From Candidatus Omnitrophota bacterium (lineage in GTDB: Bacteria > Omnitrophota > Gorgyraeia > Zapsychrales > Fredricksoniimonadaceae): a DNA stretch of 64,000 nucleotides. The notes beneath the pieces were generated by a model. It ran no database searches. It was not told where the DNA came from and saw only the letters and a list, made by a program, of their open reading frames with translations. The position numbers were made by a program, and so were the translations under genes. Of this stretch, positions 1,325 through 50,667 are shown piece by piece. The stretch's first letter is position 1. Each line of letters starts with the position of its first letter. The stretch covers positions 16,872 to 80,871 of the forward strand of contig JADFYI010000005.1 in the NCBI GenBank assembly GCA_015233145.1. Reading direction: 5' to 3'.

Positions 1325-1335
1325 GGGGTTGCGTT

Positions 1336-3823: not shown

Positions 3824-3855
3824 CTTCTTAATAGAATTAAAATAGGGAGAGTCTT

Positions 3856-4179: not shown

Positions 4180-4265
4180 AGAAATTAGTTTTTGGTAGGG
4201 GTATCTGGCCTTATTTTAGATTTCATTTTAGAATATCGTCGAAATCTTTCACGCCTTGTTTTTTC

Positions 4266-4295: not shown

Positions 4296-4317
4296 CATGG
4301 CAGAAGGGAGATTTGCC

Positions 4318-4602: not shown

Positions 4603-4604
4603 CT

Positions 4605-5870: not shown

Positions 5871-5879
5871 GGAGCATTT

Positions 5880-23359: not shown

Positions 23360-24165
23360 GACGAAAAATTATCACGATTGATGACAACAAATGCAATGGC
23401 TGTGGAGTGTGTGTCCCGGCCTGTCATGAGGGCGCGATTAAAATTGTAAACGGCAAGGCGAAACTTTCCCAGGATGCTTTATGCGATGGATTAGGCGCTT
23501 GTTTGGGGGAATGCCCCCAGAGTGCCATTACCGTTCAAGAACGTGAGGCTGATGATTATAGTGAAATCGCCGCGTTAAAAAATATCAGCAAACAGGGGGC
23601 TCAAGCGGTCGATGCCCATTTAAAGCATCTTCAGGATCATGGACAAAAAGAGTATTTGGCGGTTGCCATGAGTTATTTAAAAGAGAAGGAGCTCCAGATG
23701 ACAAAAGAAAAATCATCGTGCGGTTGCCCGGGTGCCATGGCCAGAGATTTCAGGGGCGCGGTAAAGCCAGTGGGCAGTATGGCCCCGGAAGCTGTTACGA
23801 GCGGGCTCGAGCAGTGGCCAGTCCAGTTAAAACTTTTGAGTTCTCAAGCGCCGTTTTTTGAAGGCCGGGAAATTGTTGTGAGCGCGGATTGCGTGCCATT
23901 TACTTATGCTAATTTTCATTCTAGGTTTTTAAAAGGGAAGGCTCTTGTAGTTTTTTGTCCCAAGCTTGATGAGGGTCTTGAAAGTTATGTTGAGAAGCTC
24001 GTAGAAATATTTAAGAGACATGCTACGCTATCGGTCAGCGTTGTGCGTATGGAGGTTCCTTGCTGCGGTGGGACGTTGAAAATTGTAGAAGATGCGGTCC
24101 GGCGTTCAGGGAAAAATGTGGTCATTAAGGAATACACAATATCTCTCAGAGGAGAGATTGTCTAA
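23356..24165 (+). CDS. 4Fe-4S dicluster ferredoxin-domain protein
   Basis: [16 protein letters not shown] and [16 protein letters not shown], plus a C-terminal CCGG motif. Overlaps the Rrf2 stop. Confidence 0.7.
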
Positions 24166-24178
24166 AAAGGAGAATGCT

Positions 24179-25831
24179 ATGAGTATGTTTTGTTTTCAAT
24201 GCCAGGAAACAGCCGGCAACGCCGGCTGCAAAGTTAAGGGTGTTTGCGGTAAAACCGATGTGGTGGCCAATTTACAGGATCTTTTGATTTTTGTGACCAA
24301 GGGCATTGCCGTTGTGGCAGACAAAGCCAGGGGCCAGGGGATTGCCCTGGATAACAAGACCGGGCAATTTATGACAACCGCAATTTTTACGACAATCACT
24401 AATGCCAATTTTGACGAGGCGGCCATTATCGCGCGCATTCGTCAGGCCCTGAAAGTGCGTGATGCCTTGAAAGCCGGAATATGCCCGTCGTGTGGCTGTG
24501 ATTCTTCTTCTGCGCCGGAGTGCGTCACCTGGAGCGCGGATACCGATGACAAGATCAGGATGAAAGCCGCCTATGTCGGCGTTCTCACGACAGAGAACGA
24601 AGATATCCGCTCTCTTCGAGAACTCATTATGTATGGCGTCAAAGGCCTTTCAGCGTATGCCGAGCACGCCTGGCAGTTAGGCTATGAAGACCCTGCGATT
24701 TATGACCATATAGTGACCGCATTGTCAAAAACAACCCAAGACCTCCCTGTGGATGAGCTCGTCGGATTGACACTGAAGACCGGGGAGTATGTGGTAAAAA
24801 CTCTGGCGCTTCTTGATAAGGCGAACACGACCACTTACGGCAAGCCTGAGATTACAAAGGTGAACCTGGGGGTGAGAAAAAATCCCGGTATTCTTATTTC
24901 CGGCCACGACCTTAGGGACATGGAAGACCTTTTGGAACAAACCAGGGGCACGGGCGTTGATGTTTATACGCACAGTGAAATGCTCCCGGCGAATTATTAT
25001 CCGAAGTTTAAAAAGTACGACAACCTCGCTGGTAATTATGGCAGTTCCTGGTGGCACCAGAACCAGGATTTCGAGAGTTTTAACGGCCCGGTACTGATGA
25101 CAACCAATTGCATCATTCCGGTGAAGGGCAGTTATTTAAACCGCCTTTTTACAACTGGTGCAGCCGGATATCCCGGAGCCAAACATATCGGGGAACGTCC
25201 TATGGGCGGACGCAAAGATTTTTCTGAAATTATTAAACTGGCCAAAACATGCCCGGCGCCAAAAGAAATTGAGACCGGAACTCTGGTCGGCGGCTTTGCT
25301 CATGACCAGGTTTTGGCCCTGGCGGATAAGGTTGTGGCTGCGGTCAAATCCGGGGCTATCAAGCGTTTTGTGGTCATGGCAGGCTGTGATGGCCGCATGA
25401 AAGACCGGCAGTATTTTACGGATGTTGCCAATGCCTTGCCGAAAGATACCATCATTCTTACGGCTGGCTGCGCAAAGTATCGTTACAACAAACTTCCCTT
25501 GGGTGATATTGGCGGAATTCCTCGAGTCCTTGATGCCGGCCAGTGCAATGATTCGTATTCACTCGCCGTGATCGCGCTTAAGCTCAAAGAAGTTTTTGGG
25601 CTGGATGATATTAACAAGCTTCCGATTTCTTATGACATTGCCTGGTATGAGCAGAAGGCCGTGGCAGTCCTGTTGGCGCTTCTTTACCTGGGTGTCAAAA
25701 ACATCCGTTTGGGGCCGACCTTGCCGGCATTCCTCTCGCCGAATGTGGCCAAGGTGCTGGTTGAGAAATTCAATATCAAGCCCACTGCGACAGCCGCGGC
25801 GGATGTGTCAGCGATCATGGCCGGCGTTTAA
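24179..25831 (+). CDS. hcp: Hybrid cluster protein (hydroxylamine/NO reductase)
   Basis: [18 protein letters not shown]-terminal cluster motif; about 550 aa. AAGGAGAA RBS precedes 24179. The track start at 24092 overlaps the upstream gene. Confidence 0.9.
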
Positions 25832-25866: not shown

Positions 25867-27036
25867 CTAGTTAGCGCGCTTGCCGCAGAGGTGGACTTTA
25901 GTACCATAGATTTTCTCTATCTGTGTCGCAGGCGTCATGCTCAGGTCTTCGTCATTGATATCAAAACTGGCTCTCGGCAAGATGATTTCTTCTGGCCGAG
26001 GGCCTTTATTGTGAAGGAAAAATTCTTTAACCGCGGCCAAATAATCCTCCACAAGCAACAGGCCTGCGCAGTCAACGTTTCCTGCGAAAACTTGAGATTT
26101 AACCATGTGGGATCCGTCATTTTCCATTCCTAAAGACTTTAATACGCCTGGAAAAACATTGCGGACGCTGGCAGGATAAAGGAATAACTTTCTTCTTTTG
26201 GAAAAATTTCTTTTGTCTTTCATCAAATTTCTAAGACTTTCTGAAATATCTTTGTTCATGTCAGTATCAGACATCGCAAAGCCATAACTGATATTGGCAG
26301 AGTATTTCTTTTTAAGGAAGAGGCAGTATTGATGAAGGAAATTATCGGGAACTGATAATTCTTTAATGACATGAGCAGGGGTATACTTCGTGTAACCGGG
26401 GCGATGTACCACGATTTTTGTAGTGTTGATTTCTGTTAAATTTCTGACTGTCGCTTCAAAATCTCCGGAAGTGATGCTTTGTTTTAAAGGGACAAGGAGT
26501 ATCAAGTGGTGGATTTTATATTTTTTTAACAGGCTCAGCGTAGCGATGGCATTTTGATGTTTTTTTTGCGTTCCACCCATGATTTTTGTTCTATGGGAAA
26601 TGTTAGTTGTGTGCAAAGAAACATGTAAACATAAATTCAATTCTTTAATTATTTCGAGCTTTTCTTCTGTCAATTCCATGGCGTTGGTGAAAGTGATCAT
26701 GTTATTGCATTCAACGCGTTTCTTTTGAACCAACAGTTTGAGGACATCCATAACATGGGGATGACAAAAAAATTCTCCGGAATTAACATGGATGGCCGAG
26801 CCTATCCATGCGGGACTTTTCAAATGCCTGTCCATGAAATGTTCGATTTCTTCCAGCGTCAGCATCCTGTTAAGATGCTTGAGGACATGGGGCGGGTTCC
26901 ATTTTTGAGAGCAAAAAAAGCAATTTGCGCTGCAGACATCGCCGAGAGTAATGATGCCGTTTTGAAAATCTTTTTTAAACGCCTCATAGACGTCGGCCGG
27001 CATGGAAAGTTTTGATTCCGCTCGAGAAAGGCTCAT
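25867..27036 (-). CDS. Radical SAM protein with DUF512-like C-terminal domain
   Basis: CSANCFFC (CxxxCxxC) near the N-terminus. C-terminal VFAGNVDCAGLLLVEDYL resembles the DUF512 G..V.V.GLL.G.D motif. The gene is visibly AT-rich. Confidence 0.6.
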   Translation of the reverse strand: MSLSRAESKLSMPADVYEAFKKDFQNGIITLGDVCSANCFFCSQKWNPPHVLKHLNRMLTLEEIEHFMDRHLKSPAWIGSAIHVNSGEFFCHPHVMDVLKLLVQKKRVECNNMITFTNAMELTEEKLEIIKELNLCLHVSLHTTNISHRTKIMGGTQKKHQNAIATLSLLKKYKIHHLILLVPLKQSITSGDFEATVRNLTEINTTKIVVHRPGYTKYTPAHVIKELSVPDNFLHQYCLFLKKKYSANISYGFAMSDTDMNKDISESLRNLMKDKRNFSKRRKLFLYPASVRNVFPGVLKSLGMENDGSHMVKSQVFAGNVDCAGLLLVEDYLAAVKEFFLHNKGPRPEEIILPRASFDINDEDLSMTPATQIEKIYGTKVHLCGKRAN

Positions 27037-27195
27037 AGGGTATTAATGAAATGGTTGCGAGAGATCCTTTATTTTATTAAGTATAATGAATCGTTCTCAT
27101 TTTTCCCATTATTTTTAAAAGAGGCGGGAGGTAATTTTTACCCTTGTTTTTTTAGGAGGCTTTCCTATAATGGTTCCTCTTAAACAGGAAAAGGA

Positions 27196-27564
27196 TTGGG
27201 AACAAAAATGAAAATGCCTGAAAGCCGTGAGTGGCGCAGATGTGATGTTTCTTTTCCAGCGAAATGCTGGGCTAAGGCGTCTCCTCAAAATCAGAACAAT
27301 ATTAATATTATTAATATCAATGGCCAGGGTTTTTGTTTTTCTTCTCTTTTGGGGTTTGAGTCTGGTGATAAATTAGGCCTGGAAATGGCCCTTCAGGGAG
27401 TGGGAAAGGCGCGCTTAAACGTGCAAGTCATCTGGTCAGGATTTCTTGATAAAGAGAAAAGCTTTTATTCAGGAGTCAGGATTGTCAATACTGATCAAAA
27501 TGAGCATGAAAAGTTCCTGAAATTTTATAATTTAAAACTTCTTTCTCTTCCTGCTTTGGAATAG
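27196..27564 (+). CDS. PilZ-like domain protein
   Basis: REWRR (RxxxR) and NINGQG (degenerate D/NxSxxG). Start uncertain: non-ATG 27196 or ATG 27208. Confidence 0.45.
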   Translation: MGTKMKMPESREWRRCDVSFPAKCWAKASPQNQNNINIININGQGFCFSSLLGFESGDKLGLEMALQGVGKARLNVQVIWSGFLDKEKSFYSGVRIVNTDQNEHEKFLKFYNLKLLSLPALE

Positions 27565-27676
27565 TGCATAATTTACTTCTTTCTATGTTGTCAGCTTGTA
27601 TAGCTTGTGTTATATTTATCTATAAGGGGAACAACCAGAACAACGGGAACTGGTTTGTTATTAAAAGGGGATAAAT

Positions 27677-28249
27677 ATGGATAAACCACCGCTAACAACC
27701 GGTGAAATTGCCCAATATTGTCACGTCACAGACCGCGCTGTCTTAAAATGGATTGATGAAGGAAAGCTTAAGGCCTACCGCACCCCAGGTAACCATAGCC
27801 GTGTGAGTATTCATGATTTTATTGCCTTTTTGAAGGAATATAAGATGCCTATTCCTGAGGAGTTACAGGAAGGCAGTACACAAAAGAAGGTTTTAATCGT
27901 TGATGATGATAAAGAAATGGTTAATGCGATACGGCGTGTCATTTCTTCCCAAAATCACTTCCAGGTTGATATTGCCTATGACGGCTTTATGGCAGGGCAG
28001 AAGTTTGCTGAATTTAAGCCTGATTTGGTCCTTTTGGATATTAAAATGCCAGGAATCGATGGCTATGAGGTTTGCCAGCGCATCCGCAAAGACCCTGACA
28101 GCAAACACGTTAAAATCATTGTGATATCAGGCGCGCTTGATATGGACGGGATGGAGCGGATCATGCAACTCGGCGCAAATGATTATTTGACAAAACCTTT
28201 TCGTAATGAATTCTTGATCATGAAAGTTGAGAGAGTTTTAGGCCTTTGA
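27677..28249 (+). CDS. Hybrid regulator: excisionase/MerR-type HTH + REC domain
   Basis: LTTGEIAQYCHVTDRAVLKWIDEGKLKAYRTPGNHSRV, then VLIVDDD, LVLLDIKMPGIDG, KPF. Confidence 0.7.
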   Translation: MDKPPLTTGEIAQYCHVTDRAVLKWIDEGKLKAYRTPGNHSRVSIHDFIAFLKEYKMPIPEELQEGSTQKKVLIVDDDKEMVNAIRRVISSQNHFQVDIAYDGFMAGQKFAEFKPDLVLLDIKMPGIDGYEVCQRIRKDPDSKHVKIIVISGALDMDGMERIMQLGANDYLTKPFRNEFLIMKVERVLGL

Positions 28250-28279
28250 CGATCCCGCGGAGAATAGGCAACCCCTTTT

Positions 28280-29044
28280 ATGTTCCCATCTGCTGACGTC
28301 CTTTCTTTTGACCGAGTTCCTCCCACAGTTTTTATTCGAGATGACGATGTCTGGACTCCTGATAGCGTTTTTAAGGAGCTTTTGGGTTTTTTGAAAAAAC
28401 AAAAAATCCCGGTGATTTATGGCATTATCCCTGATCGCCTTGAAGAGGCCATGGTTCGTCTCCTTCGCAAAGAAAAAAAGCAGCACCCGGGATCTCTTGA
28501 TATCGTTCAACACGGGTTCGCTCATAAAAATTATGGCGAGGGCATGGCCAAGTATGAGTTTGGCCAAAGACGGTCCTATCACGATCAGCATGACGATATC
28601 CTCAAAGGGCTTACCATCATGCGCAGGCGTTTTGCACAGTATTGGACCCCGGGATTTATCCCGCCCTATCATGGTTATGATAACAACACCTTAAAAGTTA
28701 TTCGGTCGTTAAAAATCCCTCTTTTTTCATCAGGGGCGAGGGTCGTTTGTGATCAAAAGACTTTTATCGACCTTCCAGCCGCGATATCTTTAAATGAGTA
28801 TGATGCCAACAGCACGCCGAAGCCTTTTGATTTTCGCCATATGCTGAACACAACCTTAAGAACGTTGCGGCCGGGCAAGGTTTTTGGCATGGTTTATCAT
28901 CACCGCGCCATTAAGACAGAGTCGGATATGCGGGCCATTAAAATGTTTTTGCGTCTTTTGGCAGATTGGCGAGCTCAAAAAGAGCTTAGAATCGTGCTTT
29001 TTTCTGATATTTTAGAGGGATTTTCAAAAGGCGTTTCCTTTTAA
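28280..29044 (+). CDS. Polysaccharide-deacetylase-like (DUF2334-type) protein
   Basis: VFIRDDDV and DIVQHGFAH motifs in the order expected for NodB-like metal sites. Confidence 0.4.
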   Translation: MFPSADVLSFDRVPPTVFIRDDDVWTPDSVFKELLGFLKKQKIPVIYGIIPDRLEEAMVRLLRKEKKQHPGSLDIVQHGFAHKNYGEGMAKYEFGQRRSYHDQHDDILKGLTIMRRRFAQYWTPGFIPPYHGYDNNTLKVIRSLKIPLFSSGARVVCDQKTFIDLPAAISLNEYDANSTPKPFDFRHMLNTTLRTLRPGKVFGMVYHHRAIKTESDMRAIKMFLRLLADWRAQKELRIVLFSDILEGFSKGVSF

Positions 29045-29094
29045 AGAACTTGAAATAAAGTCTTAATAATATATACTTTTAATAATAATAAGCG

Positions 29095-29529
29095 TTGATG
29101 ATAAAAAGGGCAGGAGAGAATGTTATGCAGAAAAATTTGGTTAAAGTCAATGGTTGGGGCAAGCTGTCCGTAAAAACAAAAATATATCCATTGCAGACGA
29201 TTTATTCCGCCGGGTATGTTTTTATGGACAAGGCTTATATTTATCTTGATGAGGGGGGTAAGGACAGCGTCGCGGTGTGGCTTCTCCCGAAAGCCAAGGG
29301 AGTCAAAGTTGAACAATTGGCGTTGGAATTTTCTCAAGAATTGCTAAATTACGCCCATTATTTCTCGAGCCTTAAGGCCAATGCCGAGAGCGTAAAGATT
29401 CTTTTACAGCGCGCGCTTTTTTCAGCTTCTCCGTCGTTAGTTCAGGAGGCGGAGGAAAAGGAAATCAAAGACCTGATCGCTGAATTGGAGCAGGAAGAAG
29501 TGAAGGAAAGCAAAAAGGGGAAGAAATGA
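29095..29529 (+). CDS. hxsD: HxsD-like small protein (His-Xaa-Ser system), copy 1
   Basis: Position directly upstream of the rSAM pair. Pattern IYPLQTIYSAGYVFMDKAYIYL...ALEFSQELLNYAHY. Acidic/Lys tail. An internal start at MQKNLV is possible. Confidence 0.4.
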   Translation: MMIKRAGENVMQKNLVKVNGWGKLSVKTKIYPLQTIYSAGYVFMDKAYIYLDEGGKDSVAVWLLPKAKGVKVEQLALEFSQELLNYAHYFSSLKANAESVKILLQRALFSASPSLVQEAEEKEIKDLIAELEQEEVKESKKGKK

Positions 29530-29750
29530 CTCTGCCTTTTTTGAAAAAAGACAAAGCAGGAACTTGTGTGGAGCTTTCCAAGTCCTTTTATCCTGAAAAA
29601 GCTATAAGCCGTTTTAAGGAAATATATGGCGAGGAGCTTTTTTCAGTCAATGACCAGGGACGCTGTTTTCTGGTTCGGCTGAAACATGGCTCTGAATACG
29701 ACTTTTTAGAAGCGCTTAACCATCTTTTATATTTTGCCAAGAATGCCTGA
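29526..29750 (+). CDS. HxsD-like small protein, copy 2 (paralogue of the preceding ORF)
   Basis: Shares the FYPEKAI...FLVRL...FLEALNHLLYF pattern with copy 1. ATGA overlap with copy 1. Confidence 0.35.
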   Translation: MTLPFLKKDKAGTCVELSKSFYPEKAISRFKEIYGEELFSVNDQGRCFLVRLKHGSEYDFLEALNHLLYFAKNA

Positions 29751-30687
29751 CCAAGCGAACCAATGTTATACTTGTGGTGCGAGGCGTGTTGCCATTTTTG
29801 TAGGTTACAGTTGCAATAACAATTGCCGGTTTTGTGTTGTTGCCGACAAGCGTAGTTTTGCAGACAGGACCACAGAACAAATTCAAAAGGAGCTTAAAGA
29901 GGCCTATGCCGGAGGGGCACGGCAGGTTGTTTTTACCGGCGGAGAGTGCACCCTCAGGAAAGACATTTGCGGTTTGGTTTCTTTTGCTAAAAAGACAGGT
30001 TTTCCTTCCGTTCAAATTCAGACGAACGGGCGTTCTTTTTCATCCATGGAGTTTTGCAAAAAGATCCTTTTGGCAGGGATGTCGGTGTTTGCCCCTTCTT
30101 TGCACGGGGCTACGGCAGATTTGCATGACGAGTTGACATGCAAAAAAGGGAGTTTTCGTCAGACCGTGTTGGGGATTCATAACGTGCGCAAGCTTACCAA
30201 AGGCAAGCTGCCGATTCTGACCAACACCGTTATTGTCAAAAAGAATTACCGCTTTTTACCGGAAATTGCCAGGCTTTTGGCCGGCCTTGGGGTTTATCAA
30301 ATGCAGTTTGCTTTTGTGCATGCCCAGGGGAATGCCGGCCGGTTTTACAAGAGCGTTGTGCCGCGTAAGACCGATGTGGTGCCGTATGTCACAGAAGCGC
30401 TGGACATTGCGATTCGCGCGAAGATCGGCGTCATGACTGAGGCGATACCGCCGTGCCTCTTGAAAGGATACGAGAAATATATTGCCGAACCAGGCATCCC
30501 TTCAACGGAGGTCAGGGAGCAGGGCCGGCTGGTTGAGCGTTTTGAGGATGTCAGGATGCATGAGGCCAAGATAAAATTTCCTCAGTGCCGGCGCTGTCGA
30601 TATGATTCGATATGCGAGGGGCCCTGGAGAGAGTATCCGGTATTTTATGGAAATAAAGAGTTTCAACCGGTAACGATAAAAAAATGA
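29734..30687 (+). CDS. hxsC: His-Xaa-Ser system radical SAM maturase, HxsC-type (B/C assignment tentative)
   Basis: CNNNCRFC, FTGGECTL, QIQTNG, and a C-terminal CRRCRYDSIC. Translationally coupled on both sides. Confidence 0.6.
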   Translation: MPRMPDQANQCYTCGARRVAIFVGYSCNNNCRFCVVADKRSFADRTTEQIQKELKEAYAGGARQVVFTGGECTLRKDICGLVSFAKKTGFPSVQIQTNGRSFSSMEFCKKILLAGMSVFAPSLHGATADLHDELTCKKGSFRQTVLGIHNVRKLTKGKLPILTNTVIVKKNYRFLPEIARLLAGLGVYQMQFAFVHAQGNAGRFYKSVVPRKTDVVPYVTEALDIAIRAKIGVMTEAIPPCLLKGYEKYIAEPGIPSTEVREQGRLVERFEDVRMHEAKIKFPQCRRCRYDSICEGPWREYPVFYGNKEFQPVTIKK

Positions 30688-32090
30688 AAAAAACAAAAGA
30701 TTTTGTCATATTGCCGTTTAATTCGGCCAGGCTAAAAAACAAGTACCTGGTTTCCAATGTGCTTGGCGCATGGGACTTTCTGGGACCCGCTGAGTTTAAG
30801 CAATTCAGTGCTTTCGGGTTTTCCAAAGAATCTCCGTTTTTTTCAAGGCTGAAAGAGCGGGGGCTGGTGGCGGATGATTCGAACATCCAGTCGGTTATTG
30901 AAAGCTTTCGCAATACCAACGAGAATCTTTTTCTGGATACATCACTGCACATCGCGGTTGTGACAACCCGGTGCAATTTAAGCTGTTCTTATTGCCAGGC
31001 CAAGACGCCGCACCCCAAGGACATGTCTTATGAGGTGGCCGCGCAGGTTTTAAAGTATATGTTTGACGTGCGCAATCCTTCCGTGACTTTGGAGTTTCAA
31101 GGCGGCGAGCCGCTCTTAAATTGGCCGGTTGTCAAGTTTATGATCGAGAGTGCCAGAAAGATCAACACGACGGGCAAGAACCTTAAGATCACCATTGTCA
31201 GCAATCTTTTGCTTCTTGATGAAGAAAAGATGAAGGTTTTGGCAAAACACAATGTGGATGTTTGCACGTCTTTGGACGGCCCCCAGAAGATCCATGACAC
31301 AAACAGGATTTCCGCAGGCGGTCAGGGTACTTATCAGCAGGTTGTTCGAAAAATCAAAATTTTTAAAGATAAATTCGGAAAGTCGGTCAGCCTTTTACCA
31401 ACCATCACAAAAGATTCTCTAAAAAATCCCAAAGCCATTATCGATGAATATGTAAAATGGGGGCAGAAAGAGATTGCCCTGCGGCCTGTGAATAATATGG
31501 GCACCGCGTCTTGTTCATGGGCAAGCCTGGGGTATTCTCCTGAGGAATTCTGCGATTTCTACAGCCAGGCCATGGAGTATATTTTAAAATTCAATCAAGA
31601 GGGCATTTTTATCAGGGAGCGCACGGCAAACCTTATTTTGACAAAAGTCCTGGCCAAAAAGGACCATCGCTATGTGGACCTTTTGAGCCCCTGCGGCGCA
31701 GGCCGGCTGGTCATGGCCTATATGCCTGACGGCAGCTGCTATCCTTGCGATGAGGCACGCATGTTGAATGAAGACATGTTCAAGCTGGGGAATATTTTGA
31801 ATGAAAAATATGATGACATGATGAAGAAGGAAAATCTTTTACACTTGCTGGAAGCATCGTGTTCCAATTTGTGGAATTATGCCTCTGTTTACAGCCCCTG
31901 GATGGGGGTTTGCCCGGTTGTGAATTATGCGCTCCAGAAAAACGTTATTCCAAAGGTCGCCTGTTCGCCGATGCAAAAAATATTAACGTTTCAGTTTGAG
32001 TATATTTTTGGGAAAATCCTTAGTGGTGGGGATGTTCTTAAAACATTTAACCGTTGGGTTGAAGGAGAAGGCTATGGCCAAAAAAAATAA
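30684..32090 (+). CDS. hxsB: His-Xaa-Ser system radical SAM/SPASM maturase, HxsB-type
   Basis: CNLSCSYC, FQGGEPLL, SPASM block CGAGRLVMAYMPDGSCYPCDE...LGNI. Immediately precedes the His-rich peptide gene. Confidence 0.65.
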   Translation: MKKTKDFVILPFNSARLKNKYLVSNVLGAWDFLGPAEFKQFSAFGFSKESPFFSRLKERGLVADDSNIQSVIESFRNTNENLFLDTSLHIAVVTTRCNLSCSYCQAKTPHPKDMSYEVAAQVLKYMFDVRNPSVTLEFQGGEPLLNWPVVKFMIESARKINTTGKNLKITIVSNLLLLDEEKMKVLAKHNVDVCTSLDGPQKIHDTNRISAGGQGTYQQVVRKIKIFKDKFGKSVSLLPTITKDSLKNPKAIIDEYVKWGQKEIALRPVNNMGTASCSWASLGYSPEEFCDFYSQAMEYILKFNQEGIFIRERTANLILTKVLAKKDHRYVDLLSPCGAGRLVMAYMPDGSCYPCDEARMLNEDMFKLGNILNEKYDDMMKKENLLHLLEASCSNLWNYASVYSPWMGVCPVVNYALQKNVIPKVACSPMQKILTFQFEYIFGKILSGGDVLKTFNRWVEGEGYGQKK

Positions 32091-32370
32091 TTTCCCCAGG
32101 AAGAGCGTCCCTCAGTTCAAGAAATCTGTCAAAGATTTTCTGGCCGATGAGGACGGATTTGTGAGCAAGGAAACAATTCTTAAAGTGGGCCTGACAACCG
32201 TGGCAGGAATTGGCATGTTGGGTGCGATGTCTTCCGTTGGCAATGCCGGACATACGAACCATACAAGCCATAGCAATGCCTTGGCGTCTAACAATCCGCC
32301 GGCGGGACAATCGTGCGTAACTGTTTCACATAATAATTTTACGCCGCACACGAGTCATTCGTCATATTAG
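32074..32370 (+). CDS. hxsA: His-Xaa-Ser repeat precursor-like peptide (98 aa)
   Basis: GAAGGAGAAG RBS precedes ATG 32074. C-terminal GHTNHTSHSNA...SHNNFTPHTSHSSY. The track start at 31996 would overlap hxsB by 95 nt. Confidence 0.65.
   Translation: MAKKNNFPRKSVPQFKKSVKDFLADEDGFVSKETILKVGLTTVAGIGMLGAMSSVGNAGHTNHTSHSNALASNNPPAGQSCVTVSHNNFTPHTSHSSY
32251..32277 (+). repeat. Three tandem 9-nt units CATACGAAC/CATACAAGC/CATAGCAAT encoding HTN-HTS-HSN; a second patch HTS-HSS lies at 32347-32364
   Basis: Read directly from the sequence, in the hxsA frame. Confidence 0.8.
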
Positions 32371-32391
32371 AAAACAAGGGAAAGGGATGCT

Positions 32392-33129
32392 ATGAAAAGG
32401 CTTTTTTCTTTCGTCTGCGTATTTACTTTTTTAATGGCGTTTGCTGTTTATGCTCAATATAGCGATGGTTCGGATCAAAAAAAGGAGGACGCCCAGGTGC
32501 AGGCCGAGGACTCTCAAGACCAGCCATTTTTAGAGCAATTGAAAGCTTATGTGGCGGTGGCCAAAGATGACGTTTCCTTTTGCACGGGGCGGGTTTGCAA
32601 GGACAGGGCTGAAAGGATCCTTCAATTTAGGAATTTTGGAGAAGGGAAATGCAGCCAAGTTGTGGAAAACATGCGGGACCATTGCGAAAAATTCAAGTCG
32701 CACAGTTGCGCTGCATTTGCCGAGCCTAATGAGCAGGAAATGTGTCAGGGGCGTTTTCCTGGCAGTGTCGATGCCCTTTCGACAGTGCAAAAGAATTATA
32801 ATATGGAATCTCTCGAAGAGCTGGCCATGAGTTTTTCTGTTATCTTAGGGTACCAAAAGCATGATTCCGGTGCCTGTGAAAAACTGGTGACAAAATATAT
32901 ATCCAGCAAAAAACCGGAATATTTTTCTTGCAGCATCCTTTTTTCTTCAGATCCTCAGAGGGCCTTTGAAAAAATCGAAGCTGATTTTAAGCTTGTTGAC
33001 CTTGCCCGAAAAAGAAACGATTCCGAGATCTGCAAGCAAATCAAAGATCTGGCCGTTATGCAGGAATGCTACAGGCAGCCTTTTCAATCCAGGGCTGATG
33101 ACACGGCTTCCGATTCTGACAGAAAGTGA
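32392..33129 (+). CDS. Secreted Cys-rich protein (245 aa), unknown function
   Basis: Signal peptide MKRLFSFVCVFTFLMAFAVYA. Ten mature-region Cys residues in paired C-x(n)-C units. Acidic N- and C-termini. Confidence 0.5.
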   Translation: MKRLFSFVCVFTFLMAFAVYAQYSDGSDQKKEDAQVQAEDSQDQPFLEQLKAYVAVAKDDVSFCTGRVCKDRAERILQFRNFGEGKCSQVVENMRDHCEKFKSHSCAAFAEPNEQEMCQGRFPGSVDALSTVQKNYNMESLEELAMSFSVILGYQKHDSGACEKLVTKYISSKKPEYFSCSILFSSDPQRAFEKIEADFKLVDLARKRNDSEICKQIKDLAVMQECYRQPFQSRADDTASDSDRK

Positions 33130-33266
33130 GAGAAGGGTAATCCATAAGACAGCTTTTTATCTTTTTTTCTTTCGAAGTGTCTCCGCACAGTTTTCAGCAG
33201 TCAGTCTTTTATTTCTCTCAGAATATTCTCAGTTATAACAAAGTTTGAATAGCAGCAAAATTATTT

Positions 33267-34691
33267 ATGAATAAGAAGAGCCAATCTCAAGCCAAAACAA
33301 CCCTTTGGCAAAGGGTTGCTCTTATTTTATTAGGGGTGTTTTTGTCTCTTGTGATTTTAGAGACAGGGCTAAGGTGGGCAGGATTTGTATTCACATCTAT
33401 TCAGGGGTATCAAAATTGGCTGTCTGTCAGCCAAAAGGGGAGCTATCGGATCATGTGCCTGGGGGAGTCGACAACCGCAGGGTCGTATCCCCGGCAATTG
33501 GAGACGATTTTGAATGAGAGCGGGTTGAAAGTAAAATTCAGCGTGATTAACCGCGGCTACGCAGGGACGAACACATCTGTTATTTTAAGCCATCTTGAAG
33601 AGAATCTTGATAAATATAAACCGGATATGGTCATTACAATGATGGGGGTTAATGACAACCGGAATTACGTTTTTTATCAAGATAACGGCGGGGCAAAAGC
33701 AAAGGATTTTCTTCACTCCTTGCGGACATACAAACTTATGGCTTTGCTTTGGGCCAGCTTGAGGCCCAGAGTTGAGAAAGAAGACTTGTATGACGTTAAA
33801 AAAAGCGTGCCTTTGATGAGCTTTAATGATACGGAAATAAAAACCTATTGCAATCATCTTGATACGCTGGATGAGTCTTCACTCCAGTCTTTTCCCGAGG
33901 AAGGAAGGCTGGAGGCCGTCGAGCGTTTTTACAAGAAGCTGACAGACCTGTGCCCGGAGAGTGACAGACTGTATTATTTCAAGGGCCTGATTTATCTTGA
34001 AGAGAAAGAAGCGCGGGAAGCCAAGGTCGGCGAAGAATTTCTAAAGAAAGCCATTGAGATGAACCCCCGAAATTCCGATGCTTATACCATGCTCGGAGAA
34101 TGTTATCGCGACCGGAAAGAATATGATCAGGCCGTTGGATTATTGGAAAAGGCCATAGACGCCAATCCTCATAATGACCGCGCCTATACTTTGATGGGAT
34201 TGATATATTTAGAACAACAGAAGTATGCTGACGCCCTTAACATTTTTAAGAAGGCAATAACGTTTAACCCTAACGTGGACAGGTATTACGGCGGGCTTTT
34301 ATTGGTTTGCCAGGCCATGAAAGGGTGCAGGGATTCTCAAGAATATTACAGGGAGATCCAAAGGATAAGGTCAAGTTACTACAGCGCGGATACGGTCAAC
34401 AATTACCGCCAGGTTAAGAAAATTTTGGATAAAAGGGGTGTCAAGCTTGTTTGTGTTCAGTATCCGATGCGCAGCCTGGCACCCTTAAGAAAGATATTTG
34501 AAGGGGAAATAGGGGCCCTTTTTGTGGATAATGAAGGGAGTTTTAAGGCCGCAATACAGAAATCATCCTGGCGCGATTATTTTTATGATATTTTTGGCGG
34601 CGATTTCGGGCACGCTACCCAAAAGGGGGATGGGCTTTTGGCGAAAAATATTGCAGATTCGATTTTAAAAAGATATTTTAATTTGAATTAA
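33267..34691 (+). CDS. Membrane-anchored SGNH/GDSL-type hydrolase with inserted TPR repeats
   Basis: N-terminal TM. Block I CLGESTT, block III MGVNDN, block V DFGH. Central TPR repeats (AYTMLGECYRDRKEYDQAVGLLEKAIDANP...). Confidence 0.6.
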   Translation: MNKKSQSQAKTTLWQRVALILLGVFLSLVILETGLRWAGFVFTSIQGYQNWLSVSQKGSYRIMCLGESTTAGSYPRQLETILNESGLKVKFSVINRGYAGTNTSVILSHLEENLDKYKPDMVITMMGVNDNRNYVFYQDNGGAKAKDFLHSLRTYKLMALLWASLRPRVEKEDLYDVKKSVPLMSFNDTEIKTYCNHLDTLDESSLQSFPEEGRLEAVERFYKKLTDLCPESDRLYYFKGLIYLEEKEAREAKVGEEFLKKAIEMNPRNSDAYTMLGECYRDRKEYDQAVGLLEKAIDANPHNDRAYTLMGLIYLEQQKYADALNIFKKAITFNPNVDRYYGGLLLVCQAMKGCRDSQEYYREIQRIRSSYYSADTVNNYRQVKKILDKRGVKLVCVQYPMRSLAPLRKIFEGEIGALFVDNEGSFKAAIQKSSWRDYFYDIFGGDFGHATQKGDGLLAKNIADSILKRYFNLN

Positions 34692-34707
34692 AAAATATTA
34701 CCAAAGG

Positions 34708-36012
34708 TTGGCTTTTGTGAGCCTGGAAAAATTTTTGAAGATATTGCGTTTGGGGGGGGTAAACGTTTCAGAAAAGTTTTTCTCTATATTTCTAAACGTT
34801 CCATCCCGGGCCGTTGACCGGCAGATGCTGGATGTCTTACATAAACTTTTAAATGTTTACGGCCAATCTTATTTTATTGTTATTAAGGGGCTGCCTCCGT
34901 GTCTTTTCCCTCAGGCCCATGAACGGATTGTTTATGCGCGCCAAAAAGGAAAAATCTACCGGCGAATTCCTTCTTGCGGACAATGCCGGTTAAAACGCCA
35001 GTGCCCTGGCTGGTCTCATGACCTTAACCTGCCGCAGGAGGATATTCAGTCGATTGCCGACATCCCTTCAGAAATTGTTTTAGAAATTACTGGCCGATGC
35101 AACCTGTCGTGCGGCCATTGTACAAGCGCAATACAAACTGTGCGCCAGGTTCCTTTGAGAACCATCAAAACAATCCTTAACCAGGCCCATAGATGTCGTG
35201 TCCCTGCCGTACGATTTACCGGCGGGGAGCCTTTGCTTCATCCTGATCTTGCGGAAATCCTTTCTTATGCCAAGGCCCGGGGGTTTTATGTGCTTCTCAA
35301 TACTAACGCCACATTATTGACGCCTTCTTTTTTAAGACTTTTCTCAAGGTCCGTTGACAACGTCCTTGTCTCTTTACAGGGTTTTGACAGCGCCTCTGAC
35401 CAGGCGCTTACTCATTCAGCGGTTTCTTTTGAGAGGAAGTTGCAAAATATTTTTCTTTTGCAATCGTATGTTCCTACCATGCGCCTGGGGACCGTTATAA
35501 CACCGCTATTATTGGAGCATTGGCCGCGTTATGCGGCTCTGATGAAAAGAATAAAGCCATCTGCGTGGGAACTTTTTCGCCCCATGAGTGGCAGTGCCCG
35601 TCAGGAGCCTCCATTGACCAGGAAAGATTACCGCGAACTTTCCTTGAGGGTGTTGTCACTGAAAAAAGAGGGTATTAACGTCAAGCTCGCGAATGCGTTG
35701 CCGTTTTGTGTTTTGTCGAATTTGAGGCTGTCGGCAGCCCTGATGCTGGGGGCTCTTTCCGATGACGGCAACTCACGGCTTGTATGGGATGTGCGTGGTT
35801 TTTTTAAACCGAGTTATTTCATTGATAAGAATTTGGGAAAAAGTGTGATGCCCGCCTGGAGGCATTTATTCTTAAAGAAGTTAAAAAGCTCCGCTTATTT
35901 ACCAAAGCGATGCCAGGAGTGTGAATATTGGAGCTGGTGCCGCGGGGGGAGCCGCGCGATAGCTCTACAAGGCAATCATTCTTTTTTTGCCGCGGATCCT
36001 TTATTCGATTAA
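34708..36012 (+). CDS. Radical SAM protein with ~125-aa N-terminal extension and SPASM/twitch-like tail
   Basis: EITGRCNLSCGHC, FTGGEPLL, LNTNATLL. N-terminal CGQCRLKRQC and C-terminal CQECEYWSWCRGG. Non-ATG start (TTG 34708 or GTG 34717). Confidence 0.8.
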   Translation: MAFVSLEKFLKILRLGGVNVSEKFFSIFLNVPSRAVDRQMLDVLHKLLNVYGQSYFIVIKGLPPCLFPQAHERIVYARQKGKIYRRIPSCGQCRLKRQCPGWSHDLNLPQEDIQSIADIPSEIVLEITGRCNLSCGHCTSAIQTVRQVPLRTIKTILNQAHRCRVPAVRFTGGEPLLHPDLAEILSYAKARGFYVLLNTNATLLTPSFLRLFSRSVDNVLVSLQGFDSASDQALTHSAVSFERKLQNIFLLQSYVPTMRLGTVITPLLLEHWPRYAALMKRIKPSAWELFRPMSGSARQEPPLTRKDYRELSLRVLSLKKEGINVKLANALPFCVLSNLRLSAALMLGALSDDGNSRLVWDVRGFFKPSYFIDKNLGKSVMPAWRHLFLKKLKSSAYLPKRCQECEYWSWCRGGSRAIALQGNHSFFAADPLFD

Positions 36013-36866
36013 CGATGCACGATCATGATCAACCAGGTTAACAGGGGCGTATAGCTTAAAATGCACCCCAAAAAGAGAAGCGGCGCAAAGGGCACCCTGT
36101 CTTTGGAGTTTGTTACGCTTTTGGTGACAGAGTTGACGGAGTTATTGATGACGGCATAAAGAAAAATCATCCCCAGATAGACCAGCCAATTCGGCCAGAA
36201 AAAGAATTGGGGGGAAAAATGGGCCCGAAGGGTAACCCCTAAGATAAAAACAATAATGGCGACTGCCGGATATTTCAGGGATGAATGGATTGCTTTAAAG
36301 AAGATATTGATCAAAAGGTATAAAATAAGAAAAGATAAGAACCCGTATTGCGCTATTTGGAGTTTACTGAGGAGCGGAAAGGTTATCCAGGAAAGGCATA
36401 AACAGATGAGGACTGTTTTTTTGATTTCTTCACGTGTCTTTCGGGCGATTATTTTGAGAAAAATTCTTTTTCGGTAAAAAAGAGCATTTTTGATAATGTC
36501 AGGGATAAGAAGCACGAACCCGGCCATAAATGTGCAGGTAAAAAGGACAAGTGCGGGGACCGGCAATAAAAGTTCATATCCTGTCTTTGGCATAAGAAAA
36601 GAGTAAAGGATGAAGAGCTTCGCGTCGCCGGCTTCCCAGAATTTCTGCCAGTAGCAGAACGTAGAAATGGCAAGGGCGACCCCCAAGCTCGATAATGCGA
36701 AAAGCGGGAGTTCTTTCCGAAGGAAAAAAATAGATATTTGGAGAATTAATCCGGCCGCAAAAAGGAAGATCAGATGATTGTTCCGGACTTTTCTGAACGC
36801 GAAGTCAGTTGTGCTTGTTAAAATGCCTGTGAGGATAATAAGACCGAAGGAAATGTATATTAACAT
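36009..36866 (-). CDS. A24-family prepilin peptidase homologue (CpaA/TadV-like, no methyltransferase domain)
   Basis: Polytopic membrane protein. First Asp context TSTTDFAFRKVRN and second Asp in WEAGDAKLF (GxGD-type). C-terminal VPFAPLLFLG. Confidence 0.65.
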   Translation of the reverse strand: MLIYISFGLIILTGILTSTTDFAFRKVRNNHLIFLFAAGLILQISIFFLRKELPLFALSSLGVALAISTFCYWQKFWEAGDAKLFILYSFLMPKTGYELLLPVPALVLFTCTFMAGFVLLIPDIIKNALFYRKRIFLKIIARKTREEIKKTVLICLCLSWITFPLLSKLQIAQYGFLSFLILYLLINIFFKAIHSSLKYPAVAIIVFILGVTLRAHFSPQFFFWPNWLVYLGMIFLYAVINNSVNSVTKSVTNSKDRVPFAPLLFLGCILSYTPLLTWLIMIVHR

Positions 36867-36929
36867 GGGAAGAATTCTTTTTTATAAAAAATATTATAGC
36901 ATGGGGCCTGTCATTGTCAGGGAGGTTTT

Positions 36930-37805
36930 GTGGTAATTTATCCCGAGATTCCGGCAACGTTATTGCCGCTTTTTAAATATTTTAAGCTCAAGGCCTCTGA
37001 CCAGACGGGGCAAATATTGAAAGAATTTATCACGTTAGAAAATTGGCCTAAAAAAGGTTTTGAATTTTCCAGTGATTCAGCTGAGGAAAAGGGAAGGGCG
37101 TATCTTCGCGCCGCGTTTTCGTGTTTAAAGCGCGAAGAAATTTTGAGGCTGTTTTCTCATACAAAATTTCGCGCGTCAGACCTTGACGGGCTTATGTTCG
37201 AGAATTCTGTTGATCCATGCTTTGGCATGGGGATCGCCGATTACAAAGACACAAAAGAGGATGCCCGCTTCAAGCTCTACAGTGTTTATCTTGATGCACA
37301 AAAAAAAGTGGACCAGGTAAAACACATACATGATGTCTGTAAAAGGATCGGTCTTGATTTTTCTCTGGTAGGCAAGGACCTTGATTCTTTTAAGGAGATG
37401 CGGGCCTGCTCTGTGGACCTTTATGACAATGGCGTTACGGGATTAAAATTATATACCCCGTTTCTTCAGACAGAGGATATTTTGGGCCAGTATAGCTCAG
37501 TATTTGACAAATCCACATTGCACAAGTATGAAAAATTACTGCACACGGGGATTCTTCCGGAAACTTTTTTGTTTTGTATTAGGTACGGCCATTCGCTGAG
37601 GTCGGCTCGTACCGATTTTTCCTACAGGACAACGCAGGTGGCTCCTTATTTGCAGGCATTTGATTTAAGCGGAGCAGCCACCCGGTTATATCAGGAATTA
37701 TTAATGGTTATTCCGACAATAAGGCTGGCCTATATTAGTATGGATTTGGATAAAAGACTGAGAACTCAATTCTATTTTGAAGGGACGCCGCAGACCAGTG
37801 ATTAA
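36930..37805 (+). CDS. Hypothetical protein; possible ABBA-type (PatF/Orf2-like) prenyltransferase fold
   Basis: Four spaced strand motifs of the form D-x(n)-[RK]-x-[KQ]-x-Y: GIADYKDTKEDARFKLYSVY, SVDLYDNGVTGLKLYTPF, RTDFSYRT, SMDLDKRLRTQFYFEG. GTG start. Confidence 0.3.
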   Translation: MVIYPEIPATLLPLFKYFKLKASDQTGQILKEFITLENWPKKGFEFSSDSAEEKGRAYLRAAFSCLKREEILRLFSHTKFRASDLDGLMFENSVDPCFGMGIADYKDTKEDARFKLYSVYLDAQKKVDQVKHIHDVCKRIGLDFSLVGKDLDSFKEMRACSVDLYDNGVTGLKLYTPFLQTEDILGQYSSVFDKSTLHKYEKLLHTGILPETFLFCIRYGHSLRSARTDFSYRTTQVAPYLQAFDLSGAATRLYQELLMVIPTIRLAYISMDLDKRLRTQFYFEGTPQTSD

Positions 37806-38748
37806 TCTTGAATTGACCAATTATTGTAATTTTTCGTGTGAATATTGCCCTTCCCGCTGGATGACAAGAAAAAAGGGGAAAATGAGCTATCGCCTGGCCG
37901 TTAAGATTATCCGGGAATTAGCAGGGCAGGGCACGGAGAGTGTGATGACTTTTCATGTGATGGGAGAGCCCTTGTTGCATCCTGACTTTGAGAAAATATT
38001 ACGTTTTGCCAAACAAAAAGGATTGACGACTGTTTTGGTTACCAATGGCAGTCTTTTGCCCCGGGCTTTCACCGCCAGGATTAGACCGTATTTAGATTGC
38101 CTTATTATCAGCGTGACTTCAGATTCGAAACAGGTTCATGAGAGGAGAAAATCAGGGATCAGTCTTGAACATTACCGTTTGATTGTCAAGGAGGCGGTGG
38201 CCGGGCTTCTGGGCTCCTCAACGCATGTCCTTTTGTTATATCTTGATCAGTTGTCATCGCGGTCAGGAAAATCCGGGCAAGAAAAGATCGCCGGGGGGTG
38301 GCGGGAATTTCTTGTAAAAGAAAGAAGAGACTCTCCTAAGAAAAGTAAAGCCCCGGGTCGATCAAAAATGCTATTTATTAATCAATGGAAAAAAAGCCGC
38401 AGGGCGCAGACCTTTAAGTTGTTTTCTAATGTGGAGGCTGTATTTTTACCGGTATCTTTTTCCTGGGCTGGCCTCTATTCCGGATCTGGAAAACATCAAG
38501 CAGGGCATTGCCCGGATTTCTTAGAAACGCTCAGTATTTTATGGGATGGAAAAGTAACGATTTGCTGCGGAGATTATGATGGCCGCATGGCTTTGGGAAA
38601 TGTCACAAAAAGTTCGCTTAAAGACGTGCTTCAAGGCAATCAGGCATTGATTCAGAAGATGGCAAGCCTTAACAAGAAGAATTTATTATACGCTAGGGTC
38701 TGTCAAGGGTGTTTTAGCCCTTCTCAAGGCAGGAAGGGGGCGCTGTAG
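37777..38748 (+). CDS. Radical SAM/SPASM-domain protein
   Basis: LTNYCNFSCEYC, VMGEPLLH, VTNGSLL. SPASM-like CPDF...WDGKVTICCGDYDGRMALGNV...CQGC. Confidence 0.8.
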   Translation: MKGRRRPVINLELTNYCNFSCEYCPSRWMTRKKGKMSYRLAVKIIRELAGQGTESVMTFHVMGEPLLHPDFEKILRFAKQKGLTTVLVTNGSLLPRAFTARIRPYLDCLIISVTSDSKQVHERRKSGISLEHYRLIVKEAVAGLLGSSTHVLLLYLDQLSSRSGKSGQEKIAGGWREFLVKERRDSPKKSKAPGRSKMLFINQWKKSRRAQTFKLFSNVEAVFLPVSFSWAGLYSGSGKHQAGHCPDFLETLSILWDGKVTICCGDYDGRMALGNVTKSSLKDVLQGNQALIQKMASLNKKNLLYARVCQGCFSPSQGRKGAL

Positions 38749-40169: not shown

Positions 40170-40216
40170 GAACTGCTGGTCAGGCGGCAGTAGTTTATTA
40201 AAAAATTAAGACCGGA

Positions 40217-41164: not shown

Positions 41165-41218
41165 GAGCGCTGAATTCTTTGGAAAGCGCGATTTATTAAT
41201 TTTTTTTGGAGCAGGTTT

Positions 41219-46722: not shown

Positions 46723-46734
46723 ATTTTTATCAGG

Positions 46735-48428: not shown

Positions 48429-48480
48429 AACAGTTTAGCATTGATCATAGGTCTTGGGAAATATTAAGAGGTGGCTTTTT

Positions 48481-50648: not shown

Positions 50649-50667
50649 GAGGCACGGGGAGTATTTC

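Follow-up and report, generated by a model that had tools for sequence, protein, structure and literature searches.

His-Xaa-Ser (Hxs) systems were reportedly predicted in 2011, and their canonical form comprises HxsA, HxsB, HxsC and HxsD (TIGR03979, TIGR03978, TIGR03977 and TIGR03976), encoded in the order D-B-C-A. Canonical HxsA is a protein of about 211-214 aa (211 in Klebsiella) in which a 22-aa Sec signal precedes five contiguous basic HxS units (GHRSHSSHRSHSSHRSS in Klebsiella), a Ser-rich linker and a peptidoglycan-binding domain. In 2026 the Pseudomonadota-type system was shown to mature a periplasmic antiphage effector: HxsA acquires +8 Da on one SHRSS motif, is processed at its N-terminus in an HxsB/C/D-dependent manner and acts in the periplasm, and 99.7% of the canonical systems belong to Pseudomonadota (PMC13128918, Li et al. 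2026). The peptides of the HxsA3 (NF038309) and HxsA4 (NF038313) branch are shorter (80-110 aa) and combine a basic N-terminus, the motif F-L-x-x-E-x-G-x-I-S-K-E-x-x-L-K-x-G, a hydrophobic stretch and a small-x-small motif with a His-rich C-terminal core that often ends in S-Y, and a gene for an HxsB-type radical S-adenosylmethionine (SAM)/SPASM enzyme lies adjacent. Our comparative analysis of a stretch of 64,000 nucleotides from a Candidatus Omnitrophota bacterium (assembly GCA_015233145.1, contig JADFYI010000005.1, positions 16,872 to 80,871; hereafter the window) revealed a gene whose 98-aa product shares this layout. Sequence comparison identifies it as a genuine and widely conserved relative of the Hxs precursors, an unannotated, phylum-restricted variant of HxsA3/A4 type. 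With a probability of roughly 55%, we read it as the substrate peptide of an HxsA3/HxsA4-type His-Xaa-Ser radical SAM branch, the leader of which doubles as an export signal, with a cut after G28 favoured.

The peptide aligned with the HxsA3 model end to end (residues 12-97 on positions 2-81 of the 81-position model; E 1.1e-11; 44.3 bits, curated cutoff 65), and its gene directly follows a bona fide hxsB, in agreement with the preliminary description of this DNA, which had called the product an HxsA-like precursor. All 47 aligned homologues matched HxsA3 as well, the best of them (E 1.4e-13) little better than the window peptide. Neither HxsA2 nor HxsA4 (cutoff 55 bits) gave a match to the peptide at E<=10, and Pfam returned no Flp, pilin, TAT or consistent domain for the peptide and 101 diverse relatives. 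Our reading is weakened by the shortfall from the HxsA3 cutoff, by the lack of any match at E<=10 to TIGR03979 (cutoff 121.65 bits), the family to which an alignment had been proposed, by a profile search of the PDB that returned only chance matches (caltractin and tubulin cofactor A), and by the fact that this Omnitrophota branch is known from sequence only. The profile results place the peptide outside canonical HxsA. The likeness to the Hxs family nevertheless extends beyond composition, which the preliminary description had left as a concern, since homology of the leader links the peptide to that family.

A database search yielded 160 homologues of 85-118 aa at E<=0.01, all named sources being Omnitrophota metagenome-assembled genomes (MAGs), and 187 relatives at E<=1e-3 came from 1.8 billion cluster representatives searched with the family profile. 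The total comes to about 160-250 homologues, with a few source bins titled 'uncultured Planctomycetales', and the 28 species-level loci located by a genome scan came without exception from Omnitrophota MAGs or from bins of the latter title. The alignment of 47 sequences has ten invariant columns (D25, E26, G28, K32, E33, L36, K37, G39, L40 and H86) and a further 17 positions conserved in at least 90%. Nine of the ten invariant columns fall within residues 25-40, with H86 as the exception, while the core varies in length and sequence. A leader so much more conserved than its core is the classic pattern of ribosomally synthesized and post-translationally modified peptides (RiPPs), and the gene displays the conserved leader, the variable core and the start overlapping the maturase gene by which RiPP precursors are recognised. 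Common to the homologues is the near-invariant leader KDEDGFVSKETILKVGL followed by the hydrophobic stretch, and the family consensus reads K-rich ... LMKDEDGFVSKETILKVGLSTVAALGVxGALTD ... THxN ... C-x2-HTNVTTH[ST]SY.

The open reading frame (ORF) starts at ATG 32074, with GAAGGAG (32061-32067) six bases before it as a ribosome-binding site, and stops at 32368-32370; hxsB ends at 32090, so that the two overlap by 17 nt. A mechanical ORF list opens the same frame at TTG 31996 (124 aa), and the re-assignment of the start to the ATG in the preliminary description, made for the good ribosome-binding site and the overlap, was correct. NCBI lists an identical 98-aa protein with the same start (HQL16_03760, a hypothetical protein) from a Candidatus Omnitrophica MAG, and in all four homologous loci with gene calls the precursor start and the end of hxsB share 23-35 nt; both observations support the ATG start, and the overlap suggests translational coupling. 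Partner genes were counted by a tblastn matrix over 34 loci with flanks of up to 10 kb, and in 31 of these an HxsB orthologue lies directly upstream of the precursor. A second precursor copy was searched for across the window and none was found. The small size of the ORF, its overlap with hxsB and the mechanical existence of antisense ORFs might be held to indicate a spurious or untranslated frame. The 160 protein-level homologues with their invariant motifs, the conserved position and overlap, the good ribosome-binding site and the independent NCBI call with the same start make this extremely improbable; at the sequence level, conservation effectively refutes it, and the precursor is a feature far beyond chance.

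More distant relatives share the leader in the form KKxLxxFLxxEEGKISKExxLKxG, followed by the hydrophobic stretch and the small-x-small motif, and carry cores with regular HxS arrays such as HRSHSSHSSHSSHKSHSSHRSHSSH, of up to 13 units. Some of them pass curated cutoffs, P0262 for HxsA3 (111 bits) and P0231, P0291 and P0266 for HxsA4. By these alignments the window peptide belongs to a sister clade of HxsA3/HxsA4, in which all that is left of the array is a short, fixed motif that has a single conserved Cys and ends in Ser-Tyr. Where HxsA3 and HxsA4 have a regular array, the window clade has the fixed T-H-x-N ... C-x2-H-T-N-V-T-T-H-S-S-Y, and the residue after the conserved Gly is almost always Phe, unlike in the HxsA3/HxsA4 relatives. 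The likeness extends to the gene neighbourhood: HxsD is also present in the P0291 locus, the one HxsA4 locus with wide enough flanks, and an HxsA4-like locus (L042) shares with the window a second radical SAM enzyme related to the 434-aa protein of Table 1, a GT28-like transferase and a Cys-rich protein.

The six His residues of the core stand in an H-x-(S/T/N) register in two patches (residues 60-68 and 86-97, with 17 residues between them) around one Cys, as the preliminary description had read them. The motifs are H60-T-N, H63-T-S and H66-S-N on the N-terminal side of C81 and H86-N-N, H92-T-S and H95-S-S on its C-terminal side, three of the six being strict HxS. Positions conserved in the family are H66, C81, H86, N88, H95, S97 and Y98, within the clade consensus C-x2-H-T-N-[VI]-T-T-H-[ST]-S-Y; the C-terminal Y is found in 149 of 151 clade members and H-x-N-x-[ST] in 133. 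The core of the window peptide contains neither Lys nor Arg, which is also true of the cores of 123 of the 151 members. The close clade carries mostly three core His (89 sequences) or four (44), more rarely five (11), six (6) or seven (1), so that the window peptide, with six, ranks in the top ~5% where three are typical, and Klebsiella HxsA has five HxS units. Of the characterisation of the tail as minimal and degenerate, the irregularity of the array therefore stands, and the idea of a minimal array is rejected both relative to the clade and, by motif count, relative to canonical HxsA. The 9-nt repeat reported for the first patch exists in a weak form (Tandem Repeats Finder: 32251-32272, 2.4 copies, 84% match, score 30, the minimum) and does no more than reflect the H-[TS]-[NS] triplets that it encodes.

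The conserved His and Cys positions also allow the explanation that H66, C81, H86 and H95 simply form a His3-Cys metal site, as in a metallochaperone or metallophore, with the radical SAM genes as bystanders; a heavy-metal efflux operon does occur elsewhere in the window, but it is unlinked. We consider this very unlikely in view of the hxsB overlap in the window and in the four gene-called loci, the regular position of HxsB directly upstream, the homology of the leader to curated HxsA3/A4 substrates and the covalent modification of the HxS motif in the canonical system (PMC13128918). Metal binding after modification would be compatible with our reading.

In its leader-core layout and its conserved core Cys, the peptide also resembles SCIFF, the ranthipeptide pair PapA/PapB and the CcpM targets, and the next best matches of the window HxsB after HxsB itself are the thioether-forming PapB and SCIFF maturases. 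Those families have several Cys, whereas the window peptide has one, together with a much longer leader that contains a hydrophobic export element. Among the family matches of the locus proteins there was neither a C39 peptidase nor an ABC exporter.

Short HxsA-like ORFs of 90-99 aa, unannotated beyond the label 'hypothetical', were observed in two further loci (L037 2795..3067 and L038 2760..3059). They lie just upstream of hxsB on a Methylobacter plasmid and of hxsD-hxsB on a Leptospira plasmid, and each encodes a hydrophobic, signal-like N-terminal segment with an HxS array further on. In Methylobacter this array is C-terminal, and the protein ends in ...HSSHSSHVSSRY (...SRY), an echo of the C-terminal HSSY of the window peptide.

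Each part of the four-part layout given in the preliminary description is present: Lys-rich residues 1-20, the acidic DFLADEDGF at residues 21-29, the hydrophobic Gly/Ala segment and the tail. The most conserved block of the leader spans D21-L40, in which D27, F29, V30, S31, T34, I35 and V38 are conserved in at least 90% of sequences besides the invariant residues. The hydrophobic segment, earlier called TM-like, is real, and alignment and profile search reveal it as a family-wide part of the HxsA3/HxsA4-type leader; its conservation across the superfamily marks it as a functional element of that leader. Its Kyte-Doolittle maximum over 19 residues is 1.51 (family median 1.64), compared with 1.94 for a real Flp pilin and 1.42 and 1.29 for the Sec signals of the short HxsA-like proteins of Methylobacter and Leptospira, so that its hydropathy is borderline and closer to these signal peptides than to a Flp pilin helix. 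As canonical HxsA is periplasmic, the short HxsA-like proteins have Sec signals and the leader contains a prepilin-like motif, it is reasonable by analogy to regard the peptide as exported or membrane-tethered, as the preliminary description had suggested.

The tethered option, in which an uncleaved transmembrane anchor would hold the full-length modified peptide in the inner membrane with its His-rich tail in the periplasm, draws on the 21-residue apolar stretch, whose basic N-terminal side fits an N-in topology, and on the hydropathy of the family, 57% of which reach at least 1.6. The segment of the window peptide itself lies under this usual threshold and contains much Gly, Ser and Thr, canonical HxsA undergoes N-terminal processing (PMC13128918), and prepilin-like and signal peptidase I-like sites are both conserved in the family; a permanent anchor thus appears quite unlikely. 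A functional twin-arginine translocation (Tat) signal was also considered, on the strength of S-K-E-T-I-L-K beside the Tat motif S-R-R-x-F-L-K and of a hydrophobic region like that of TorA. It was rejected: the window peptide contains no R-R, none was noticed on reading the listed relatives (not counted), and Tat-region models gave chance-level matches only.

The conserved part of the leader looks like the cleavage motif of Flp prepilins. The family motif F-L-x-D-E-x-G ends in a Gly at position -1 that 275 of 277 sequences share, and the leader up to it has a median length of 29 aa; K/R at +4 (271), E/D at +5 (234) and K/R at +9 (268) follow. Annotated Flp pilins of Phyllobacterium plasmids read RFLKDESG/ATAIEYGLI, the slash marking the cut. 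With Flp/Fap prepilins in general the window peptide has in common a long basic leader that closes with F-L-x-D-E-x-G, the Gly at -1, the Glu at +5, a predicted helix thereafter and, on cleavage at the Gly, a small mature size. When a diverse family alignment was used, hhalign placed window residues K17-E33 on the Flp sequence KLFTRFLKDESG/ATAIE (P 8.1e-5, probability 61%), the Flp alignment being a shallow one of four near-identical sequences, one of them entered by hand. The alignment scored 26.5, above every one of 400 shuffled controls: column shuffling (200) reached 17.2 at most, and shuffling of the leader only (200) reached 19.9.

The second line of evidence is a peptidase gene. A 285-aa membrane protein encoded near the precursor gave no match in a direct Pfam scan; it is 34% identical (E 1e-38) to a protein of a related locus (L003) that carries PF01478, and this domain occurs in 29 of its 37 homologues, named 'prepilin peptidase' or 'Flp pilus assembly protein protease CpaA'. 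The catalytic Asp motifs of the A24 family are kept (TTD21FAFRKVRN and EAGD81AKL), and by these comparisons we assign the protein to that family. The peptidase is encoded in 19 of the 34 loci, including a distant one (L005). Also in favour are T2SSE/T2SSF genes placed directly upstream in eight loci and Flp-like proteins detected in five loci including the window.

Several findings speak against cleavage after G28. The Flp family was chosen for comparison after the motif had already been seen; with the narrower alignment A1 the hhalign probability fell to only 6.7%; and the PF04964 Flp_Fap, pilin and TAT models found no match at E<=10 among 102 diverse members. Unlike Flp pilins, the family has near-invariant Lys at +4 and +9 and no Tyr at +6 (T34 in the window peptide), and its apolar stretch is delayed until 10 residues past the Gly, with a hydropathy that is no more than borderline. 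The +1 residue is often K or R in the distant HxsA3/A4 relatives. An AlphaFold2 model built on the 47-sequence alignment places a helix at residues 32-56 and a helix break at G28, with low confidence (mean predicted local distance difference test score 57.6). In about seven loci whose flanks are complete, no A24 peptidase lies within 10 kb, and the window itself encodes a candidate for the peptidase's own canonical-type substrate, a Cys-rich Flp-type protein of 641 aa, shorter homologues of which stand directly after the precursor, in convergent orientation, in two loci (L010 and L011; 146 aa in L011).

Since such a substrate is present, the A24 peptidase may serve only the neighbouring Flp-like proteins, and cleavage by signal peptidase I between A58 and G59 is then the natural alternative. 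Residues 1-58 would form one long Sec-type signal, with a basic n-region, an h-region at 38-56 and the c-region G-N-A58 before G59, and a soluble modified peptide of 40 residues would be released to the periplasm or outside. This site also speaks against the G28 cut: a small-x-small motif (G56-N-A58 in the window peptide) within six residues before the first core His occurs in 90% of members compared with 49% of control windows, and a strict A-x-A-type rule is satisfied by 33% compared with 10%, an enrichment in keeping with signal peptidase I. The segment's hydropathy, close to that of the short HxsA-like Sec signals, points the same way, as do the ordinary N-terminal signals that canonical and short HxsA carry directly upstream of the HxS array (PMC13128918). 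A 37-residue n-region with an invariant acidic DEDG block would be atypical for a Sec signal, though, and such a signal leaves unexplained the near-invariant Gly28, the Flp-like character of the leader and the linkage of the A24 peptidase in loci where no Flp-like gene is seen within 10 kb. We regard the long Sec signal as possible but doubtful, and the G28 cut is retained as the favoured step of our reading.

The same leader and the linked CpaA-type peptidase could also mark the peptide as a genuine pilin of Flp type (type IVb), cut between G28 and F29 and polymerised by T2SSE/T2SSF machinery, so that the modified and possibly glycosylated tail would lie on the filament surface. The mature size of 70 aa is Flp-like, T2SSE and T2SSF matches occur in eight of the 34 loci each, and in two of these (L002 and L003) the stretch directly upstream of hxsD holds two T2SSE ATPase genes, a T2SSF platform gene and genes with MshEN domains, with no recognisable pilin gene among the called genes. 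Tad and type IVa pili are, moreover, commonly encoded by Omnitrophota (PMC10066038). The window speaks otherwise, with no T2SSE or T2SSF among the approximately 48 ORFs of at least 130 aa scanned between 14 and 59309; assembly genes lie nearby in only those eight loci, no Pfam pilin model matches, and charged K+4 and K+9 would fall in an N-terminal helix that should be buried and that lacks Tyr+6. A pilin proper is therefore unlikely in our view. We know of no pilin with a C-terminal tail that serves as a radical SAM substrate. The peptide would be the first such radical-SAM-modified pilin if its filament tail bore HxsB cross-links on His, Cys, Ser or Tyr, possibly with a GT28-like sugar on N-x-T, a proposal that we likewise hold to be improbable.

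Table 1. Features of the window assigned to the precursor, its parts and the surrounding genes.
Feature	Position	Strand	Remarks
Helix-turn-helix and receiver-domain response regulator	27677..28249	+	PF00072, PF12728; upstream of the locus
HxsD-like protein, 144 aa	29095..29529	+	TIGR03976 30 bits, cutoff 50
Conserved 74-aa ORF between hxsD and the radical SAM genes	29526..29750	+	No family match
HxsC4/HxsC-like radical SAM protein, 317 aa	29734..30687	+	NF038332 175.5 bits (cutoff 500); TIGR03977 96 bits (cutoff 268)
HxsB, radical SAM/SPASM maturase	30684..32090	+	TIGR03978 396.8 bits, cutoff 370
HxsA3-like precursor gene, Omnitrophota clade	32074..32370	+	98 aa plus stop; ORF and ribosome-binding site
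Leader part 1, M1-G28	32074..32157	+	F22-L-A-D-E-D-G28 after a Lys-rich N-terminus; putative prepilin-type cut at G28 (-1)
Most conserved block, D21-L40, DFLADEDGFVSKETILKVGL	32134..32193	+	Presumed HxsB/HxsD and/or peptidase recognition element
Hydrophobic Gly/Ala segment, L36-G56, LKVGLTTVAGIGMLGAMSSVG	32179..32241	+	Putative h-region or helix; followed by N57-A58/G59, small-x-small
Core, G59-Y98	32248..32367	+	Six H-x-(S/T/N), single Cys81, N88-F-T90 sequon, C-terminal H-S-S-Y
Three 9-nt units, CATACGAAC / CATACAAGC / CATAGCAAT	32251..32277	+	Encode HTN-HTS-HSN
Cys-rich secreted protein (predicted), 245 aa	32392..33129	+	21-nt gap after precursor; signal-like N-terminus MKRLFSFVCVFTFLMAFAVYAQ; no family match
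Radical SAM protein, 434 aa	34708..36012	+	PF04055; usually adjoins the A24-like peptidase
A24-family (CpaA/TadV-type prepilin) aspartyl peptidase, 285 aa	36009..36866	-	Candidate leader peptidase
GT28_C-like glycosyltransferase, 408 aa	53741..54967	-	PF04101 E 9.4e-8
Cys-rich Flp-type protein, 641 aa, MLTSRKG/QSIIEYSIIAALVMSAIIFGG (MLTSRKG/QSIIEY...)	54996..56921	-	PF04964 E 5.6e-5, 23.3 bits, cutoff 32.2

As in canonical HxsABCD, the precursor of the window is encoded beside an HxsB that scores above its curated cutoff and beside HxsC-like and HxsD-like genes, the latter two below their cutoffs, and its N-terminal hydrophobic putative export signal is followed by H-x-S motifs (Table 1). The gene order differs (D-orf74-C-B-A in the window), the peptide lacks a peptidoglycan-binding domain, and the A24 peptidase, the GT28-like transferase and more radical SAM genes come as extra partners. 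HxsD was detected in 30 of the 34 loci, its orthologues in related loci carrying PF27806 HxsD, whereas the HxsC4/HxsC-like gene occurs only in the window and two others (L001 and L023). The 434-aa radical SAM protein recurs in 23 loci, with orthologues 39-55% identical in L001-L005 and 36% identical in L042. The GT28-like glycosyltransferase recurs in 27 loci and adjoins the precursor in most related ones; with the window copy as tblastn query, orthologues 28-34% identical were obtained in 31 other loci, L042 included. The Cys-rich secreted partner was counted in about 22 loci and is usually the immediate downstream neighbour of the precursor. In L001-L005 the protein encoded after the precursor has 249-285 aa and a hydrophobic N-terminus, and in L042 one of 253 aa precedes it. 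An orthologue of the response regulator, 85% identical, stands at the equivalent position in L001, and regulation of the locus by this protein is possible. PADLOC returned only generic radical SAM cross-matches to viperin models and no defence-specific signal.

The 74-aa ORF has orthologues in L001 (45% identical) and L009-L011 (35-38%), and ORFs of 64-77 aa occupy the equivalent position in L005 and the P0291 locus. Its size is near that of canonical HxsD (79 aa in Klebsiella), and it shares with the HxsD-like protein only two short motifs (FYPEKAI / EALNHLLYFA, E 0.62). Some loci depart from the common arrangement. In L011 the HxsB orthologue (7262..8620) has lost CxxxCxxC (TTRCQGTPGHG, compared with TTRCNLSCSYC in the window) and is either a pseudo-enzyme or an assembly error; L029 has HxsD and a precursor and lacks HxsB; and L002 (= L020; GCA_015233675.1) has two precursors, both by A24-like sequence (a full gene and a terminal fragment), one copy adjoining the T2SSE/T2SSF genes without an HxsB of its own. 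The locus of the window lies in an unusually dense radical SAM island (25867..53763) with twelve radical SAM genes in about 28 kb, at 25867c, 29734, 30684, 34708, 37777, 42360, 44208, 46735, 48454, 50668, 51792 and 52690; interspersed among them are genes for Asn-synthase-like proteins (two), an AMP-binding enzyme and a DegT aminotransferase and the GT9, GT28-like and DUF2334 genes. A hybrid-cluster protein (Prismane) is encoded at 24092..25831, and the order Fer4 - Prismane ... response regulator - hxsD is that of L001, where another gene stands between Prismane and the regulator. The stretch 14..10099 holds unrelated housekeeping genes, namely Kdp genes (a P-type ATPase fragment, KdpC and a KdpD-like sensor) and a CusCBA-type resistance-nodulation-division efflux operon with a heavy-metal-binding domain on its membrane-fusion protein.

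For the favoured reading we infer the biochemical steps, the cleavage site, the localisation and the biological role as follows. Residues 1-58 would form a conserved leader with two roles. The block F-L-x-D-E-D-G-F-V-S-K-E-T-I-L-K-V-G-L (DEDGFVSKETILK) would be the handle by which HxsB, aided by HxsD, holds the peptide, and together with the hydrophobic Gly/Ala helix it would act as an export or membrane-insertion signal. The core (residues 59-98) would be modified in the cytoplasm by HxsB, and the other linked radical SAM enzymes (the 434-aa and HxsC4-like proteins) would probably add further modifications, the likely sites being H66, C81, H86, N88, H95, S97 and the C-terminal Y98; the GT28-like transferase may glycosylate the conserved N-x-T. 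Driven by its hydrophobic helix, the peptide would then insert in or cross the inner membrane and lose its N-terminus, preferably after Gly28 through the linked CpaA-type A24 peptidase, as Flp prepilins do, or alternatively at the signal peptidase I site. The Gly28 cut would leave a 70-residue product with an N-terminal helix as anchor and the modified His/Ser/Asn tail outside the cytoplasm. Given a core free of Lys and Arg and the missing peptidoglycan-binding domain, an electrostatic DNA trap, as proposed for canonical HxsA, is unlikely here.

The Omnitrophota branch offers a much simpler substrate than the canonical system, a core of 30-40 residues with seven conserved positions, no peptidoglycan-binding domain and no basic residues, and this simplicity would make it a convenient system for mapping the action of HxsB. 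New here are the Flp-like leader, the A24 linkage, the recurrent radical SAM, GT28-like and Cys-rich partners and the Flp-like proteins near the loci. The recurrent partners (CpaA-type peptidase, second radical SAM enzyme, GT28-like, Cys-rich secreted and Flp-like proteins) are concrete candidates for steps of Hxs maturation that the canonical system, too, leaves to be assigned, and the findings suggest more than one biological role for Hxs chemistry. To our knowledge, Omnitrophota is a phylum without cultured free-living representatives. If the prepilin reading is true, the peptide would represent a new class of modified pilin-like protein in these bacteria, and the modified-pilin reading, if true, would tie His-Xaa-Ser chemistry, so far that of an antiphage effector only, to the surface filaments of ultra-small, possibly predatory bacteria.

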